Shown here one piece after another: positions 155-63,934 of a DNA stretch of 64,000 nucleotides. The DNA is from Escherichia phage S143_2. Position numbers and translations under genes: made by a program. The notes beneath the pieces were generated by a model, which saw nothing but the letters and a program-made list of their open reading frames with translations, did not search any database and was not told the origin of the DNA. Numbering within the stretch: the first letter of the stretch is position 1; each line of letters opens with the position of its first letter. Where the stretch lies: the sequence record MZ189261.1; one strand, written 5' to 3'.

Positions 155-213
155 TTAATTTCCTTTAGACGAGTTATTGTCTTTTGTTTGTTGATGAACT
201 TATTATACTCCAA

Positions 214-231
214 ATGGGACCGAAGTCCCAT
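214..231 (-). other. stable stem-loop with UUCG tetraloop (AUGGGAC-UUCG-GUCCCAU) just 3' of regA
   Basis: perfect 7-bp inverted repeat around a cgaa/uucg loop, 5 nt after regA stop; no U-run. Confidence 0.4.
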
Positions 232-235
232 TGCT

Positions 236-604
236 TTAATTACCAATTGTATATTTTGCTTTCAAAGTCCAGTCATCTTTCTGTTTAAAAGAGATAACAC
301 GGAAGTTATTAGTCAGGCTAAATAGATCTTCACGAGCAGAGTCTTCAATAACAATCAATCCCCAGTCTTCAAGCAACTGGGCAATCGAATCACGTCGCTG
401 ATAGTCTTCACCATCAATATCAACCTGACGCCCGTCCATACGCAGCATTTCTTTAAAGTGGACGATATAGTACTTACCTTGCTTTTGGAGGATATGACAA
501 GACTGGTAAAGGACTTTATCCTTGTTATTAGCGATGCCCATACGGGTCAAAGTCTCTTTGACTTTCAGAAAATCTTCAGGGTTCTTCAATTTAATTTCAA
601 TCAT
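236..604 (-). CDS. regA: RegA translational repressor
   Basis: 122-aa product MIEIKLKNPEDFLKVKETLTRMGIANNKDKVLYQSCHILQK resembles T4 RegA; synteny 62-regA-43; track start at 613 is 3 codons upstream. Confidence 0.85.
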   Translation of the reverse strand: MIEIKLKNPEDFLKVKETLTRMGIANNKDKVLYQSCHILQKQGKYYIVHFKEMLRMDGRQVDIDGEDYQRRDSIAQLLEDWGLIVIEDSAREDLFSLTNNFRVISFKQKDDWTLKAKYTIGN

Positions 605-6795: not shown

Positions 6796-6841
6796 ATTAT
6801 TTCCTCATTAGTTAATTCATTCTATCATCCGTTTATAAAGC

Positions 6842-6873
6842 AAAAAAAAAAAAAGGAACTCCGAAGAGTTCCT
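6842..6873 (-). terminator. rho-independent terminator (minus strand)
   Basis: 8-bp stem GGAACUC/GAGUUCC type with 4-nt loop, followed on minus strand by a 13-nt U run (plus-strand A13 at 6842-6854). Confidence 0.7.
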
Positions 6874-7045
6874 ATCCACATAGTACACCGTACAGAGGCT
6901 CATTTGAACTTTTAAATCGAATGGGCTTGTATGTAATAGTTCCTTCGGCTTTAGCTTTATCATAAGACTCTTTAAAACGTCTCATTCTTTCTGCTTTGCC
7001 TTTACGGATTTTATCGAAATTTTCAGAGGTCAGGTCGTTCGTCAT
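6872..7045 (-). CDS. hypothetical small basic protein (57 aa)
   Basis: ATG at 7045; MTNDLTSENFDKIRKGKAERMRRFKESYDKAKAEG...; below track cutoff; stop overlaps terminator stem. Confidence 0.35.
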   Translation of the reverse strand: MTNDLTSENFDKIRKGKAERMRRFKESYDKAKAEGTITYKPIRFKSSNEPLYGVLCG

Positions 7046-9549: not shown

Positions 9550-9612
9550 GATATTTTACTCATTTTAAGACGATAGGAAGATAATAACATGTCTTCCTAT
9601 CGTTGTACATTA

Positions 9613-20239: not shown

Positions 20240-20282
20240 TAGTTGATAGGTCTATAATAACATAACCATAGACCTTGTAAAC
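20240..20282 (-). promoter_or_regulatory. early promoter plus stem-loop module (family C)
   Basis: minus strand GTTTACA-17nt-TATTAT-AGACCTATCAAC; inverted repeat AGGTCTAT/ATAGACCT flanks -10. Confidence 0.5.
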
Positions 20283-21720: not shown

Positions 21721-21758
21721 GATAGGTCTATAATAACATGTTTAAAGCAAAAGTAAAC
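21721..21758 (-). promoter_or_regulatory. early promoter module (family C)
   Basis: minus strand GTTTAC-17nt-TATTAT-AGACCTATC directly upstream of ATPase gene. Confidence 0.45.
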
Positions 21759-21760
21759 AA

Positions 21761-21979
21761 TTATTTGCGACGAGATTTTTTGGTAAGAGGTTGAAAGAAC
21801 ACTGCTTTACCGGCTGGGGTTAAGGTGACTCGTAATGCATTACCGATTCCTAAGGATGCTTTAACTAGACCTTTAGCTTTCAGTTCACCGAATGCTTGAC
21901 GTTGGTCTGCGTCACGAGTGTTAACCATAAGACCTTTATCACCTGCTTCACGAATCATTTCTAACATTTTGGTTTTCAT
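21761..21979 (-). CDS. hypothetical protein (start corrected to ATG 21979)
   Basis: 72 aa MKTKMLEMIREAGDKG...; track start 22036 lies in promoter module. Confidence 0.4.
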   Translation of the reverse strand: MKTKMLEMIREAGDKGLMVNTRDADQRQAFGELKAKGLVKASLGIGNALRVTLTPAGKAVFFQPLTKKSRRK

Positions 21980-22066
21980 TTTGTTCTCCTCTTGTTTTGA
22001 TAGGTCTATAGTATCATATCCTAAAAGCATGTACACTACTTTTTAAAAATATTTTAACCCCCTAAA

Positions 22067-22082
22067 GGGACCCGAAGGTCCC
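22067..22082 (-). other. stable stem-loop with UUCG tetraloop (GGGACC-UUCG-GGUCCC)
   Basis: perfect 6-bp stem; located 5 nt after stop of gene 22088..22369. Confidence 0.45.
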
Positions 22083-22087
22083 CACAT

Positions 22088-22369
22088 TTACTTATCGCAC
22101 TTAGCAACATAATTAGGCATATCACAGAATACGGAGCGAGTAACTACTCGGCCCTTTGACCATGCTTCAGTTGCTTGTCCGGCCGTGCTATTAATATAGC
22201 TTGATCTAATGTTCTCAATACCCTGAGAATGTGATGCATTTACCGAACCATTAGAAGGCCCAGAAGACTGGTTACCACCAGCTCCTGCACTACCACCAGC
22301 AGCACCCGTGGTAGCACCAACAGAGAATGCCATCATTACTGCGAATAAACCAATTACTAATTTTTTCAT
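22088..22369 (-). CDS. secreted Gly/Ser-rich protein
   Basis: 93 aa; N-terminal signal peptide MKKLVIGLFAVMMAFSVGA; low-complexity G/S/A linker; two C-terminal Cys. Confidence 0.5.
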   Translation of the reverse strand: MKKLVIGLFAVMMAFSVGATTGAAGGSAGAGGNQSSGPSNGSVNASHSQGIENIRSSYINSTAGQATEAWSKGRVVTRSVFCDMPNYVAKCDK

Positions 22370-22400
22370 ATTTACCTCAAGTTAATGGTTATTTATCTAC

Positions 22401-23390
22401 TTATTTATAGTAAGAATTATGATTTTCGAGATAGACTTGTTCAAGGAAGTCATCCCAGAAACTCATATCTACTTTTTGTTGCATACCGTTCTTGGCAGCT
22501 TGTTCTGACGCATGTTCAACTTGGTCAACGATATCTTCTAGGAATTCTTGTACAGTTTTAAAAGTATGTTTACCAAGCTTAACATCGAGAATAAATGGAG
22601 CATCCTGAAGTGGGTAAACCAGGTCGCCTGTTTTGTAAATTTCCAATAATTGAAGTCCACCACGGCATGCATGACTCAATGCTTTCCAGTCAATACCTTC
22701 GTTAGCTTCTGCTTTACGAGCACGTTCGCCATAGTTCTCTTCTAGTTTAACAAGGATGGCATTGAACTCTTTATTGGTTAACGTGTCTTGGAATTTACGG
22801 TCTAACAGATTATAGAATGTTTGCTTACCTGTTTTCTCGTTTTCGGTTTCAACCCATGAAGCAAATTCACCTACAGGCAGAACATTCTTCATATGTGATA
22901 AACGAATTACTGCACCATTATCAAAGTATTGTCCCCATTCATTAGAACGTTTAAGGGCTTGACGAAGAACAGCCAGTCGAGAACCCTTGACACCGTATTT
23001 AGAAGCTTGCTTACGGACATACCCTAAATAAGATTTCATGTTAGTGGTATAGAAACGAGACCTGTTATCTTGAATATACTTCCATACATCAGGCAAATCA
23101 GATTTAACTACTAGACTTGGTGGAGTGTGAAGCATATCTAATGCGACGGTTTCACCATCCGCAGCTAGTTTAAAGAAATATTTGAGACTATACAACTCAT
23201 GGTCCACGTCGTCTTTTGTGTTCTTAGAAGATGTGTTATTCGTGTTCTTGCTCATATGTTCTTTAACGTTACCGGTCAAAATATCACGAGCATGAGGGAC
23301 ATAAATTTCTTTAAAATCGACGTCAGATTCAGGAGTAGACGTTCCATAAAGGTGGCTACCAAAGTAGCCTTTCATAATTGTTTTCATCAT
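22401..23390 (-). CDS. nucleotidyltransferase-fold protein (pol-beta-like NTase)
   Basis: 329 aa; N-terminal GSHLYGTSTPESDVDF (G[SG]-x9-13-DxD) followed by helical C-terminal region. Confidence 0.5.
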   Translation of the reverse strand: MMKTIMKGYFGSHLYGTSTPESDVDFKEIYVPHARDILTGNVKEHMSKNTNNTSSKNTKDDVDHELYSLKYFFKLAADGETVALDMLHTPPSLVVKSDLPDVWKYIQDNRSRFYTTNMKSYLGYVRKQASKYGVKGSRLAVLRQALKRSNEWGQYFDNGAVIRLSHMKNVLPVGEFASWVETENEKTGKQTFYNLLDRKFQDTLTNKEFNAILVKLEENYGERARKAEANEGIDWKALSHACRGGLQLLEIYKTGDLVYPLQDAPFILDVKLGKHTFKTVQEFLEDIVDQVEHASEQAAKNGMQQKVDMSFWDDFLEQVYLENHNSYYK

Positions 23391-24704: not shown

Positions 24705-24736
24705 TTTGATAGGACTACTATAACATAGTCCTACCA
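24705..24736 (-). promoter_or_regulatory. early promoter plus stem-loop module (family C)
   Basis: minus strand GTTTAC-atcttggTAGGACTATgtTATAGTAGTCCTATCAAAAC. Confidence 0.5.
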
Positions 24737-25198: not shown

Positions 25199-25243
25199 TG
25201 ATAGATGCCAAAAAGCCCCAACCATAAGGAAGGGGCTAGTAAA

Positions 25244-28779: not shown

Positions 28780-28828
28780 CTCCTCTAGTTGACAGGTCTA
28801 TAGTAACACAACTAGAGGAGAAGTAAAC
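28780..28828 (-). promoter_or_regulatory. early promoter with 12-bp perfect inverted repeat sequestering regB SD
   Basis: minus strand GTTTAC-ttCTCCTCTAGTTGtgttactatagacctgtCAACTAGAGGAGaaatcaaaATG; arms 28780-28791 and 28809-28820. Confidence 0.6.
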
Positions 28829-35764: not shown

Positions 35765-35804
35765 TAATAGGACTACTATATCATAGTCCTATAATTGTGT
35801 AAAC
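35765..35804 (-). promoter_or_regulatory. early promoter plus stem-loop module (family C)
   Basis: minus strand GTTTAC-acaattaTAGGACTATgaTATAGTAGTCCTATTAAAAC. Confidence 0.5.
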
Positions 35805-37057: not shown

Positions 37058-37099
37058 TTTGATAGGACTACTATAACATAGCCCTATCTTGTTGTAAAC
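37058..37099 (-). promoter_or_regulatory. early promoter plus stem-loop module (family C)
   Basis: minus strand GTTTAC-aacaagaTAGGGCTATgtTATAGTAGTCCTATCAAAT. Confidence 0.5.
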
Positions 37100-38658: not shown

Positions 38659-39214
38659 GGATTAAATTGTTAGTGAAATTAGGACTAACAACCATGGTTT
38701 CATAAAGCGCATCAATAGCACTTAAAGCATCAACTCTTTTAAGCAAAGGCTTGCCTTCATACATAGTTTCAGAATCGACGATTAAAGTGAAGTAGTATTT
38801 TTTATTATTGACCAGAACTTCTGTATCAATATAAAACATGTTAGACCTTAAAAGCTTGTCTCTAAAGCCTATGTAATCATCTGAACGTTCACTGATATAG
38901 TCCCATTCAGTGTTTAAACAACAAACAGACCACGTAGGAGCAACGAAATCAGTGAATCTAATATCATGGTCTGCAACTAGTTTAGCAATAGCTCCGATAT
39001 CATGAATCATAATACCTGGGGCTAATAAAGATTTTCGGTTATTTGCATATTCAGTTGTCTCATAAGAAGACGACCAGTACCATTTACGTCCAGTTGCAAC
39101 ATATCGTAATGAATCAACTAAAGACGTAGGTGGATTTACCTTATCTCGGAACTCTTCGAACATTGAGTCAATATCATTATTTTGGTTTCGCATGTTAACT
39201 CCTTTATTATCCAA
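38597..39214 (-). CDS. hypothetical protein with EQFIMECR motif near C-terminus (start uncertain)
   Basis: track ORF overlaps upstream gene; probable start MRNQNNDIDS. Confidence 0.4.
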   Translation of the reverse strand: MDNKGVNMRNQNNDIDSMFEEFRDKVNPPTSLVDSLRYVATGRKWYWSSSYETTEYANNRKSLLAPGIMIHDIGAIAKLVADHDIRFTDFVAPTWSVCCLNTEWDYISERSDDYIGFRDKLLRSNMFYIDTEVLVNNKKYYFTLIVDSETMYEGKPLLKRVDALSAIDALYETMVVSPNFTNNLILEQFIMECREYVKANPIHAK

Positions 39215-39242
39215 AAGGAGGACCGGAGTCCTCCGTATTATT

Positions 39243-40345: not shown

Positions 40346-40412
40346 TTTGTTTACTCCACTGTAGTTGATAAGTCTATAGTATCACCATCCTTGGTGCTTG
40401 TACATCATTATT

Positions 40413-40718
40413 TTATTTTTTCCAACTTAACAACTTGTAGTGTCCTTCATTCATACGTGGTTTATCCCAAGAAATACTAATATACGATTCACTGTCAATA
40501 GAAGTCGCCGGGTTTTTCTCTACCGTAAGACCTTCACTTTCCAGCCATTCAATAGTATTTGCGCATAAATCTGAAGAACACCTCATCGGAAACCGGCAAG
40601 ATTTTTCACCTTTAGCTGCAGTGTTATACATCTTTTCTAAAATACGCTTTTGCACGTTTTTAAAAATAGTTTCAGCAGATTCTTCAGATTTTTTATTCAG
40701 TTCGGTATAAAGACTCAT
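40413..40718 (-). CDS. hypothetical protein
   Basis: 101-aa ORF. Confidence 0.45.
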   Translation of the reverse strand: MSLYTELNKKSEESAETIFKNVQKRILEKMYNTAAKGEKSCRFPMRCSSDLCANTIEWLESEGLTVEKNPATSIDSESYISISWDKPRMNEGHYKLLSWKK

Positions 40719-40804
40719 AACATTTTCCTCATGTTTTTATAGGTCTATAGTAACACATCTAGGGAAGAAGTAAACAACTTTTTCAGTAAGTTATAGACCC
40801 CCTA

Positions 40805-40824
40805 ATGGGGACCGAAGTCCCCAT
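40805..40824 (-). other. stable stem-loop with UUCG tetraloop (AUGGGGAC-UUCG-GUCCCCAU)
   Basis: perfect 8-bp stem 4 nt after stop of 40828..41454. Confidence 0.45.
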
Positions 40825-40827
40825 TCT

Positions 40828-41454
40828 TTACTTACGAGTTTTTGCATACTGAGCAGCGTCAGCAGCCAAACGACCTGCCTGACGAAGTTTTTCTTTAATC
40901 GCATCGTGAAGTGGTTGAGTATACTTCAAACCTTCGATAGTCAAATAAAGACGATAAAGGTCTGGGGTGTCAAGGTTGTTGATATGTTGGCCATTACGAA
41001 GAATATTGAATTCACGAACGAGTGAAGATGTATCAGATTCAATATCACGAACAAGCGAAGATAGTTGTTTATATTTTTTTTCCAGGCTAGAAGTATCAAA
41101 CTTAAGAGCAGGAGCTTTAGGAGTTGCTTTTACTTCCGGCTTAGGCTCAGGTTTTGCTACTGCTTTAGGGGTCGCAGGTTTAGGAGTGGTAGGAGCAGGT
41201 TTCACTTTAGGCGAACCCGATTTAGCAGAAACACCACCACTAACAATATCTTTGAATGCTTTAGAAGCTCTGTAATATTCTTTTTGGCTGGAAGTGTCGA
41301 TACCGTACATGGCTTGAACGTTTTTGAAAAACTCTGTACTAGTTTTTGTACCAGAAATAGCATCGTAAGCAGCTTGCCATTTCTCTTTTGTCATACGTAC
41401 ACCGGCTTCGGTGATTACTTCCGTTTCGGCTAAAAATTCATTAAAAGTATACAT
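40828..41454 (-). CDS. Pro/Lys-rich protein with degenerate CTS-like leader
   Basis: 208 aa; N-terminus MYTFNEFLAE resembles CTS; central PKPATPKAVAKPEPKPEVKATPKAP low-complexity linker. Confidence 0.5.
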   Translation of the reverse strand: MYTFNEFLAETEVITEAGVRMTKEKWQAAYDAISGTKTSTEFFKNVQAMYGIDTSSQKEYYRASKAFKDIVSGGVSAKSGSPKVKPAPTTPKPATPKAVAKPEPKPEVKATPKAPALKFDTSSLEKKYKQLSSLVRDIESDTSSLVREFNILRNGQHINNLDTPDLYRLYLTIEGLKYTQPLHDAIKEKLRQAGRLAADAAQYAKTRK

Positions 41455-41498
41455 TGATGGTCCTTAGAAAGTAGGTTTATTGTTTACTATATTTATAC

Positions 41499-41526
41499 AA
41501 AAAAGCCCCAACCTTTCGGAAGGGGC
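41499..41526 (-). terminator. rho-independent terminator (minus strand)
   Basis: interrupted GC-rich hairpin (GCCCC..CC-uuuc-GG..GGGGC) followed by U6 on minus strand. Confidence 0.55.
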
Positions 41527-41829
41527 TATATACCTTGTCGGGGTTCCACCTACTAAGGCAAGTGTTTGTACGAAACGCCGGGGTTCGAACCCGGTTATTA
41601 AGCAGTTGACGCTACTCAATATTTTTAAAAGGCCATATCTCGACCATATCCGAACGTTCCGTCAAAAACGCTACTCGGCTTACGGCAAAGATATTTCCTC
41701 GAATCGATAATTCGGTGCGCCGTTTCTGCTGTGGTGTAAGGGGATATTAACAAATCGTAAAGATTTATTAAGACCAGTCCTTACTCAGGGAACATCAGTC
41801 CGACGACTTACCGGTAGCGACCCGGCTTC

Positions 41830-42192: not shown

Positions 42193-42269
<77 letters not shown>

Positions 42270-42273
42270 TATT

Positions 42274-42348
42274 TGGCGGACGTGATAGGATTCGAACCTA
42301 TAACCAATCGCTTAACAGGCGATCGCTCTGCCATTGAGCTACACATCC
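42274..42348 (-). tRNA. tRNA-Asn (anticodon GUU)
   Basis: 75-nt cloverleaf; anticodon stem ATCGC/GCGAT, loop CUGUUAA; T-arm GGTTCGAATCC; encoded CCA. Confidence 0.8.
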
Positions 42349-42352
42349 AAAT

Positions 42353-42439
42353 TGGTGGGGAGTGATGGAGTCGAACCACCCGAGTCGCAATGACAATGGA
42401 TTTACAGTCCACACCGCTACCTCTACGGGATAACTCCCC
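42353..42439 (-). tRNA. tRNA-Tyr (anticodon GUA)
   Basis: 87 nt with long variable arm; anticodon loop CUGUAAA; acceptor GGGGAGT/ACTCCCC; encoded CCA. Confidence 0.75.
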
Positions 42440-42451
42440 TAATTCATAATT

Positions 42452-42526
42452 TGGTGGCCCTGGGTGGAATTGAACCACCATCTGGCGATTATGAGTCGCT
42501 TGCTTGAACCTTCCAGCTACAGGGCC
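42452..42526 (-). tRNA. tRNA with CAU anticodon (Met or Ile2)
   Basis: 75-nt cloverleaf; anticodon loop CUCAUAA; position after Thr corresponds to T4 tRNA-Ile. Confidence 0.75.
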
Positions 42527-42527
42527 T

Positions 42528-42604
42528 TGGTGCTGATTGACGGAATCGAACCGCCGACCTTCTCATTACAAGTGAGTTGCTCTACCTACTGAGCTAAATC
42601 AGCA
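42528..42604 (-). tRNA. tRNA-Thr (anticodon UGU)
   Basis: 77-nt cloverleaf; anticodon loop CUUGUAA; T-arm GGTTCGATTCC. Confidence 0.8.
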
Positions 42605-42608
42605 AAAC

Positions 42609-42698
42609 TGGCGGAGGCGATAGGATTTGAACCTATGAGTCGCCGGAGCGACTGCCGGTTTTCAAGACCGGTGCATTAAACCACTCTGCCACGCCTCC
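42609..42698 (-). tRNA. tRNA-Ser (anticodon UGA)
   Basis: 90 nt with long variable arm; anticodon loop CUUGAAA; acceptor GGAGGCG/CGCCTCC. Confidence 0.8.
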
Positions 42699-42700
42699 AG

Positions 42701-42774
42701 TCTCCATACAAGGATTTGAACCTTGGGCCTCCTGATCCCAAATCAGGCGCTCTACCAAACTGAGCTACACGGAG
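42701..42774 (-). tRNA. tRNA-Pro (anticodon UGG)
   Basis: 74 nt; anticodon loop UUUGGGA; T-arm GGTTCAAATCC; CCA not encoded. Confidence 0.75.
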
Positions 42775-42784
42775 TAAATTAAAT

Positions 42785-42858
<74 letters not shown>

Positions 42859-42863
42859 AAATT

Positions 42864-42950
42864 TGGTGCGAGAAGTGGGACTCGAACCCACAAGGAAATC
42901 ATTCCGCAGCATTTTAAGTGCTGTGCCTTTACCAATTTGGCCATTCTCGC
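42864..42950 (-). tRNA. tRNA-Leu (anticodon UAA)
   Basis: 87 nt with long variable arm; anticodon loop CUUAAAA. Confidence 0.8.
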
Positions 42951-42951
42951 G

Positions 42952-43024
42952 CTGGGAATAAAGGACTCGAACCTTTGCATCCTGGAATCAAAATCCAGTG
43001 CCTTACCAACTTGGCTAATTCCCA
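42952..43024 (-). tRNA. tRNA-Gln (anticodon UUG)
   Basis: 73 nt; anticodon loop UUUUGAU; T-arm GGTTCGAGTCC; CCA not encoded. Confidence 0.75.
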
Positions 43025-43979: not shown

Positions 43980-44048
43980 TTTATTCTCCTCGGTAGTTGA
44001 TAGGGTAATAGTATCACTACCCTATCTAAAAGTAAACGGTTTTATAAA

Positions 44049-44704: not shown

Positions 44705-44754
44705 GTCGTTTATTTGATAGGACTACTATAACATAGTCCTACAGGTGTGTAAAC
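44705..44754 (-). promoter_or_regulatory. early promoter plus stem-loop module (family C)
   Basis: minus strand GTTTAC-acacctgTAGGACTatgt-TATAGT-AGTCCTATCAAATAAAC. Confidence 0.5.
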
Positions 44755-57468: not shown

Positions 57469-57493
57469 GGGAGCCTTCGGGCTCCCATTTTTG
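57469..57493 (+). terminator. rho-independent terminator after gene 8
   Basis: GGGAGCC-UUCG-GGCUCCC hairpin followed by AUUUUUG. Confidence 0.75.
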
Positions 57494-57497
57494 TATC

Positions 57498-57505
57498 TAT
57501 AAATA
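57498..57505 (+). promoter_or_regulatory. late promoter TATAAATA (for gene 9)
   Basis: exact late consensus 32 nt upstream of gene 9 ATG. Confidence 0.65.
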
Positions 57506-63902: not shown

Positions 63903-63908
63903 TGAAAA

Positions 63909-63922
63909 GGGCCTTCGGGCCC
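63909..63922 (+). other. stem-loop with UUCG tetraloop after wac (weak terminator)
   Basis: GGGCC-UUCG-GGCCC 7 nt after wac stop; no strong U-run. Confidence 0.45.
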
Positions 63923-63934
63923 TAAAGGATTTAT

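Follow-up and report, generated by a model that had tools for sequence, protein, structure and literature searches.

C(UUCG)G stem-loops at cistron 3' ends in the RB69-like Escherichia phage S143_2

Introduction

The CUUCGG hairpins of bacteriophage T4 (Tuerk et al. 1988, PNAS 85:1364) are members of the UNCG class of extra-stable tetraloops. As summarised in PMC8948821, the 1988 work found such hairpins to be abundant in T4 intergenic regions and to stop reverse transcriptase. A second described system, the PeSL and PmSL elements (Arbiol 2010, PMC2839356; Comeau 2014, PMC4122927), joins a stem-loop to an early or a middle promoter and is marked by variable neighbouring ORFs; the stem-loop of a PeSL cassette and the rrnB T1 terminator lowered the expression of a downstream lacZ to similar degrees (PMC2839356). 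For RB69, TransTerm terminators have been predicted at 47<--a-gt.2, RB69ORF102c<--nrdC.11 and 8-->9 (Nolan et al. 2006, PMC1524935 supplementary file S6), predictions whose coordinates we matched to sequence at the nrdC.11 site only. Neither of the two T4 records that we checked (NC_000866, AF158101) carries terminator or promoter features.

Here we describe the UUCG hairpins in a 64,000-nucleotide stretch of Escherichia phage S143_2 (MZ189261.1), which we call the window and number from its first letter. The window spans regA to wac of an RB69-like Mosigvirus (Tevenvirinae); over its first 3 kb it shares 99% identity with RB69-like Mosigvirus phages, JS09 among them, and its gene order follows the JS09 annotation (regA, 62, 44, 45 ... 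nrdC, tk, e, tRNA region, 57, 1, 3, 2, 4). The block from regA to gene 4 lies on the minus strand, the baseplate/neck genes 53 to wac, together with 13, lie on the plus strand, and the coding strand switches near 47.7 kb.

Results

Six C(UUCG)G hairpins follow stop codons on the sense strand

An initial annotation of the window had listed five UUCG hairpins, three on the minus strand and two on the plus strand. Inspection of the sequence together with a mechanical search for tetraloop hairpins recovered all five with coordinates that agreed within 1 nt, and added a sixth that had been overlooked, the fourth copy on the minus strand, at 6854-6873 (Table 1). In all six, a UUCG loop is closed by a C-G pair on a stem of 6-9 Watson-Crick pairs, with predicted nearest-neighbour folding energies of -11.7 to -15.6 kcal/mol, and, of the window's 31 distinct tetraloop hairpins whose stems have 6 bp or more, they account for six. 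Against the six observed, 200 dinucleotide shuffles, modelled on the composition of the whole window and not on that of its intergenic regions, gave a mean of 0.005 and a maximum of 1 C(UUCG)G hairpin with at least six Watson-Crick pairs. A chance origin of the six hairpins is ruled out by these shuffles.

Table 1. Hairpins of the UUCG set and the sequence elements beside them (positions in the window; stem-loops written as RNA, 5' arm-loop-3' arm)
Feature	Position	Strand	Sequence	Predicted folding energy (kcal/mol)	Context
gp43 translational operator hairpin	167-182	-	AGAC-AAUAACUC-GUCU		Context only, outside the UUCG set
-10 element	202-207	-	TATAAT		5 nt after hairpin 1
Hairpin 1	213-232	-	AAUGGGAC-UUCG-GUCCCAUU	-11.7	3 nt past the regA stop codon (236-238), upstream of gene 43; initially given as 214-231
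Middle-promoter consensus	6819-6844	-	MotA box TTTGCTTTA (6836-6844), 11-nt spacer, TAGAAT (6819-6824)		Before gene 47, whose ribosome-binding site comes next
U12 tract	6842-6853	-	U12		Directly after hairpin 2
Hairpin 2	6854-6873	-	AGGAACUC-UUCG-GAGUUCCU	-12.0	Overlaps the a-gt.2 stop codon (ORF 6872-7045)
Early promoter	22008-22036	-	GTGTAC, 17 nt, TACTAT		Before the ORF starting at 21979
G-run	22058-22065	-	UUAGGGGG		Directly after hairpin 3
Hairpin 3	22066-22083	-	GGGGACC-UUCG-GGUCCCU	-12.9	4 nt past the stop codon of a 93-aa ORF (22088-22369); initially given as 22067-22082
Early promoter	40747-40775	-	GTTTAC, 17 nt, TACTAT		Before the ORF starting at 40718
G-run	40798-40805	-	UUAGGGGG		After hairpin 4, overlapping its last two stem bases
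Hairpin 4	40804-40825	-	AAUGGGGAC-UUCG-GUCCCCAUU	-15.5	2 nt past the stop codon of a 208-aa ORF (40828-41454); initially given as 40805-40824
Hairpin 5	57469-57486	+	GGGAGCC-UUCG-GGCUCCC	-15.6 (z = -3.98)	3 nt past the gp8 stop codon; then come U5 (57488-57492), late promoter TATAAATA (57498-57505) and gene 9
Hairpin 6	63908-63923	+	AGGGCC-UUCG-GGCCCU	-12.2	5 nt past the wac stop codon, abutting the gene 13 ribosome-binding site AAAGGA (ATG 63935); initially given as 63909-63922

All six hairpins are intergenic, and at each of them it is the local coding strand that reads UUCG rather than CGAA. They follow regA, a-gt.2, the 93-aa ORF, the 208-aa ORF, gp8 and wac, and the earlier description of hairpins a few nucleotides after a stop codon proved accurate, the gaps being 3, 4 and 2 nt for the three minus-strand copies it had listed and 3 and 5 nt for the plus-strand pair; the added copy overlaps its stop codon. 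A C-G-closed UUCG loop on a complementary stem of 2-8 or more pairs, in a predominantly intergenic, sense-strand position, is also what characterises the T4 hairpins, so that the T4-type identity first proposed for these elements, C(UUCG)G hairpins directly 3' of genes on the transcribed strand, holds. The strand bias, seen at all six sites here and in the four strong T4 copies that we examined, argues for a role at the level of RNA.

The sequences that come after the hairpins divide the set. The lack of a U-run reported for hairpins 1, 3 and 4 is correct, their tails being UGGAGUAU, UUAGGGGG and AGGGGGUC, and the plus-strand pair, in which the UUCG loops are present as described, is split between a U5 after hairpin 5 and no U-run after hairpin 6. 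U-runs thus follow hairpins 2 and 5 only, and the four other copies lack a feature by which intrinsic terminators are defined. Downstream of hairpin 6 there is neither a U-run nor a promoter, and since this hairpin lies inside a late transcript that must be read through from wac to 13, it cannot be an efficient terminator there. A promoter of the early, middle or late type stands downstream of the remaining five, a feature that had been overlooked in the earlier description. A literature search for this phage and for the T4 sites gave no usable transcript 3'-end or half-life data.

Such tight spacing to the stop codon, found at each of the six positions here as well as at the sites in T4, could also point to translation. 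A stable hairpin 0-5 nt past the stop would then isolate neighbouring cistrons by keeping GC-rich sequence off the next ribosome-binding site or by limiting re-initiation or read-through by ribosomes, and hairpin 6, which abuts the gene 13 ribosome-binding site with no promoter or U-run between, has the arrangement that this calls for. Genome compaction, however, predicts tight spacing equally well, and at the other five sites a promoter separates the hairpin from the next ribosome-binding site, the downstream message usually starting past the hairpin. We consider a translational role improbable.

Two more UNCG-type hairpins, with C(UCCG)G loops, were noted on the minus strand at 39217-39234 and 42630-42660; one of them, GGAGGAC-UCCG-GUCCUCC followed by U4, is terminator-like, and the other lies within the tRNA cluster. 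An Rfam 15 search of the window gave no family match to the hairpins at the gathering score and returned only 10 tRNAs, the genes of which (RF00005) occupy 42196-43024 on the minus strand, with the weakest, at 30.2 bits, at 42358-42437.

Pairing is conserved while stem and loop sequences change

Comparison with T4-like relatives shows what is maintained at these sites. Among 80 RegA-related loci taken from IMG/VR, a tetraloop hairpin stands a few nucleotides past the regA stop codon in every lineage in which regA is directly followed by gene 43. For covariation we used 11 distinct regA-43 sequences, one set of 11 lineages including T4; in this alignment, made by hand by anchoring on the loop and hence biased towards the structure, 94% of the cells are paired and seven of the eight pairs have changed on both sides. 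These values were reached by none of 500 shuffles, and sliding the partner columns left 26-64% pairing. The loops are mostly UUCG, with UACG, UUAC, GAAA and UCCG as the others. The strong constraint suspected earlier is thus supported, and the compensatory changes in seven of eight regA-43 pairs across 11 lineages place it on the structure. The covariation numbers are confined to regA-43, since searches of the gp9 and gp47 loci with single proteins gave few relatives.

The T4 sites agree. T4 carries C(UUCG)G hairpins of other stems at regA-43 (AAGGGGC-UUCG-GCCCCUU) and after a-gt.2 (AUAGGAGC-UUCG-GCUCCUAU), the orthologues of hairpins 1 and 2, whereas at three orthologous sites it is the loop that differs: between 8 and 9, T4 has GGGAGCC-CAUG-GGCUCCC, on the same stem as the window and likewise followed by U5 and TATAAATA; between wac and 13 it has GGGGCC-GCAA-GGCCCC against the UUCG loop of the window; and at the 45-44 junction T4 GAGGGC-UUCG-GCCUUU stands against UGGAGGA-GAAA-UCCUCCA at 2160-2177 of the window. 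At 8-9, an IMG/VR contig with 74% gp9 identity (L204, IMGVR_UViG_2974739009_000001), whose regA and gp47 copies are 100% identical to those of the window, has GGGAGAC-UUCG-GUCUCCC, in which the change from GGGAGCC to GGGAGAC is matched by a compensating one. At the nrdC.11 site, RB69 has AAGGGCC-UUCG-GGCCCUU and HX01 a UGAA loop. Across the orthologous T4 sites the hairpin is always kept while stem, loop or both are altered. Since position and pairing are kept and stem and loop drift among stable tetraloops, selection acts on a stable RNA stem-loop and not on a sequence-specific site, a conclusion to which the sense-strand bias also leads.

These comparisons bear on the idea that the hairpins are processing signals, sequence-specific sites for an RNA-binding protein or nuclease of phage or host. 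The core GGGAC-UUCG-GUCCC does recur three times in the window, but stem and loop sequences vary freely at orthologous sites with pairing retained, and the hairpins match no Rfam family; we regard such a role as very unlikely indeed.

Segmental duplication of the minus-strand copies is not supported

The initial annotation had called hairpins 1, 3 and 4 near-identical and offered duplication as one reason. Near-identity holds for hairpins 1 and 4, which are alike at 20 of 22 stem-loop positions and combine a common 14-nt core, GGGACUUCGGUCCC, with an AAU/AUU extension, differing by one G-C pair; hairpin 3 departs from it by an extra C-G pair beside the loop. Duplication does not stand for hairpin 1 and any other copy: identity of the upstream flanks is 10-33%, and downstream nothing is common. 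When the three copies were aligned with their flanks, similarity outside the stems appeared only between hairpins 3 and 4, on the downstream side, where it takes in the G-run and the promoter family. There, the early promoters are 70% identical and rank 5th of 253 promoter pairs, for which the mean is 46%; the promoter after hairpin 4 is, however, equally like one at 28800, which has no UUCG hairpin, so that what hairpins 3 and 4 share is mainly promoter-family sequence. In addition, the T4 hairpin to which hairpin 1 is orthologous has a different stem. The likeness of hairpin 1 to hairpin 4 possibly arose by convergence in a small sequence space or by conversion confined to the hairpin.

Two other origins were considered. 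Segmental duplication of the three minus-strand copies was rejected on account of their unrelated flanks, and a dispersed repeat of REP or MITE kind spread by duplication calls for similarity that extends into both flanks, which we did not find. The exact 14-mer GGGACTTCGGTCCC occurs in at least 120 stretches in IMG/VR, where unrelated phages too have it behind their genes, one contig (L090) with four copies; IMG/VR is so large that chance could yield hundreds of such matches, and the count therefore says nothing on enrichment.

Hairpins 2 and 5 have the form of intrinsic terminators

The U12 tract directly after hairpin 2 makes it a canonical intrinsic terminator by sequence. For the middle-promoter consensus that follows we used the published sequence and spacing (PMC2988021), and in RB69 the predicted promoter Pm:40046 abuts the predicted terminator 47<--a-gt.2 (Nolan et al. 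2006, PMC1524935). Hairpin 5 likewise falls at a junction, 8-->9, for which a terminator has been predicted in RB69 (same source). Counting the last stem base, the T-run at 6842-6854 holds 13 T in the window and 6 in an otherwise near-identical IMG/VR contig (L206), a difference that is either a homopolymer length polymorphism or a sequencing artefact.

The regA-43 hairpin stands beside a P43-type -10 element

After hairpin 1 come, in order, TATAAT, the gp43 operator hairpin, of which the 16-base RB69 form has been described (PMC3014915), and the gene 43 start. The TATAAT at 202-207 is probably the orthologue of the -10 element of the T4 middle promoter P43. Of the 14 relatives listed, 11 have GTATAAT 8-10 nt past the GC-rich hairpin core; in the remaining three, it lies farther downstream (two lineages) or reads ATATAAT (one). 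The T4 middle-promoter starts compiled in the Hinton review (PMC2988021 Table 1), P43 at 29933, P47 at 36576 and PmobB at 38682, are 19, 31 and 33 nt past the last base of the corresponding T4 UUCG hairpins, and the P43 start is 5 nt past the T4 equivalent of TATAAT.

This arrangement suggests that the DNA of the regA-43 hairpin may double as a -30 element. Its 5' arm and loop (...GGGACTTCG...) would form the MotA-box region of P43 as well, so that one palindrome would serve both the 3' end of the regA message and P43 activation. Counted from the mapped T4 start (PMC2988021 Table 1), the G-C-T-T of the T4 hairpin 5' arm and loop falls at -31 to -28, which is the register of the MotA-box core (PMC2988021), although the distance from the T4 box to the -10 hexamer is then 15 bp and not 12 +/- 1. 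The window has an ACTT 13 bp from TATAAT, the canonical spacing, and an ACTT core is functional in T4 P46 (PMC2988021); the short, fixed distance to GTATAAT in the 11 relatives also accords with dual use. On the other hand, three lineages have loops without CTT (UACG, GAAA) and still keep both hairpin and TATAAT, and the RB69 middle-promoter HMM of Nolan et al. made no prediction between 29842 and 36773. We regard the overlap as possible but doubtful.

On the opposite strand, facing regA, a MotA-box consensus ATTGCTTTA abuts hairpin 1, with TATATT 11 nt later (230-255, plus strand). Between the regA stop codon and the hairpin, 7 of 12 lineages, T4 among them, retain the AAGCAA; its distance to the -10-like hexamer is not the same throughout, and the hexamer lies within conserved regA codons. 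These motifs could represent an antisense middle promoter or be coincidental.

Hairpins 3 and 4 lie at cassette boundaries next to early promoters

Hairpins 3 and 4 share one downstream layout: UUAGGGGGU comes first, then AT-rich sequence and an early promoter, and lastly a ribosome-binding site and ATG. The octamer TTAGGGGG occurs only twice in the window, at these two hairpins, and at each of them base pairing is possible between the UUAGGGGG run and the 3' arm. A scan for CTTCGG-N5-6-TTAGGGGG returned mostly unrelated matches, with the same layout in only four contigs, which we took as T4-like. As a separate observation, UUAGGGGG directly after a UUCG hairpin was also seen in RB69, HX01 and three contigs with the hairpin-plus-early-promoter layout; the loci with this G-run are L225, L226, L259, L302 and L305, and in three of them it abuts the -35 element GTTTAC.

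Both sites coincide with breaks in homology. RB69 lacks window 22091-22402, and with it the 93-aa ORF, so that its homology breaks off immediately upstream of hairpin 3, and it has its own UUCG hairpin and UAGGGGGU right behind nrdC.11. In HX01 the missing stretch is 21750-22402, and the junction falls in repeated promoter sequence. At hairpin 4, AV111 is homologous as far as 40781, in the interval from the hairpin to the -35 element, and a different ORF with a copy of an AGCCCC...GGGGCU terminator replaces hairpin 4 and the 208-aa ORF, while PHB12 lacks 40385-41494.

Such breakpoints raise the possibility of a role in DNA, in which hairpins 3 and 4 with their early promoters would be PeSL-type linkers whose recombination inserts, deletes or swaps the small ORF cassettes that they flank; such a role could hold in addition to one in RNA. 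The succession of stem-loop, AT-rich stretch, GTTTAC-N17-TAYWAT, ribosome-binding site and ATG is the published PeSL layout (PMC4122927, PMC2839356), and variable neighbouring ORFs are found at both hairpins in the RB69, HX01, AV111 and PHB12 comparisons. On the other side, a hairpin precedes only 3 of the window's roughly 23 early promoters, which makes the promoter the main part of what is repeated, and the published T4/PST stem consensus is AGNA-loop-TCNT and not the GGGAC of the window. Hairpins 1, 2, 5 and 6 lie between conserved core genes, and a role in DNA would leave the strict sense-strand bias and the loop swaps unexplained. Recombination at these two copies is inferred from the breakpoints. 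On balance we rate linker function at hairpins 3 and 4 as a serious possibility, somewhat short of even.

Several further features were noted in the window. The 93-aa ORF (22088-22369, minus strand) encodes a signal-peptide-like N-terminus and a Gly/Ala/Ser-rich region; relative to RB69 it is an insertion between nrdC.11 and hairpin 3, and most of the Mosigvirus records listed cover 80-84% of its region in two pieces, which is consistent with its absence from them. Near-identical terminators, AGCCCCUUCC-(GAAA/UUAU)-GGUUGGGGCU followed by U4-6, lie at 41504-41527 and 25214-25237 on the minus strand; one of them follows the tRNA/rnaC region, and copies stand at the AV111 and PHB12 cassette junctions. 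Many of the roughly 23 T4-type early promoters contain an inverted repeat of 10-12 bp, such as GGTAGGACTAT-GTTATA-GTAGTCCTATC, with the 5' arm in the spacer, the loop over the -10 element, the 3' arm over +1 and predicted energies of -12 to -16 kcal/mol (minus strand: 24707-24736, 35767-35792, 37061-37088, 44717-44742, 43999-44026, 20248-20275, 28781-28819 and 9570-9603).

Discussion

The six hairpins are real and under selection, and they are ordinary: the class to which they belong has been known in T4 since 1988, the RB69 terminators predicted by Nolan et al. (2006) fall at three of the same junctions, and the combination of terminator and promoter is the already published PeSL/PmSL concept. 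Nothing essential separates them from the T4 hairpins, with which they share the C-G-closed UUCG loop, the short GC-rich stem and the intergenic position on the sense strand, the window copies being those of the RB69 lineage. The PeSL/PmSL layout is present at hairpins 3 and 4 and, in its PmSL form, at hairpin 2, where a stem-loop lies upstream of a MotA box and a -10 element; hairpins 5 and 6 do not have it, and most early promoters in the window differ from PeSL units in having no stem-loop upstream.

In our assessment the six are probably C(UUCG)G stem-loops of cistron 3' ends that act as terminators where a U-run follows and mainly as exonuclease barriers elsewhere, and that insulate the next promoter. 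Each hairpin would fold in the message once the last ribosome leaves the stop codon 0-5 nt upstream. Hairpins 2 and 5, which share the GC-rich hairpin and U-run of E. coli intrinsic terminators, would then be ordinary terminators of this kind, termination being predicted from their form. The four copies without a U-run, which differ from E. coli terminators in this respect, most likely attenuate read-through weakly; going by the literature, they would act chiefly as barriers to 3'-to-5' exonucleases and so give the upstream message a stable 3' end. In this they resemble bacterial 3' stem-loop stabilisers (REP and terminator hairpins), in which a stable hairpin at the end of a cistron requires no U-run, although REP elements have extended conserved flanks that the window hairpins lack, and protection here is putative. 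A stabilising or processing function at the 3' end, as proposed in the initial annotation, is plausible. With a promoter downstream in five of six cases, hairpin and promoter would form an intergenic terminator-promoter junction that insulates the upstream message from the next promoter, which is early at hairpins 3 and 4, of the MotA type at hairpin 2, represented by a P43-type -10 element at hairpin 1, and late at hairpin 5.

Beyond this role in RNA, some of the hairpins might be bifunctional, with the regA-43 DNA serving as the -30 MotA-box region of P43 and with UUAGGGGG at hairpins 3 and 4 acting as a switch or a recombination mark, a proposal to which we give little weight. Pairing of UUAGGGGG with the 3' arm could constitute a switch, set by a terminating ribosome that stops just 2-4 nt upstream and covers the 5' arm; another option is that UUAGGGGG could mark a specific site for cassette recombination.

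In summary, the hairpins add little new biology: they confirm that the RB69 lineage, like T4, still places extra-stable tetraloop hairpins at the ends of its cistrons, and that stability rather than sequence is under selection. The overlap of the regA-43 hairpin with the P43 -30 region is a small testable curiosity. For annotation, the hairpins are of value as markers of transcription-unit ends and cassette boundaries in Mosigvirus genomes; with the four copies that have no U-run, terminator prediction that depends on a U-tract fails at two of the RB69 junctions.
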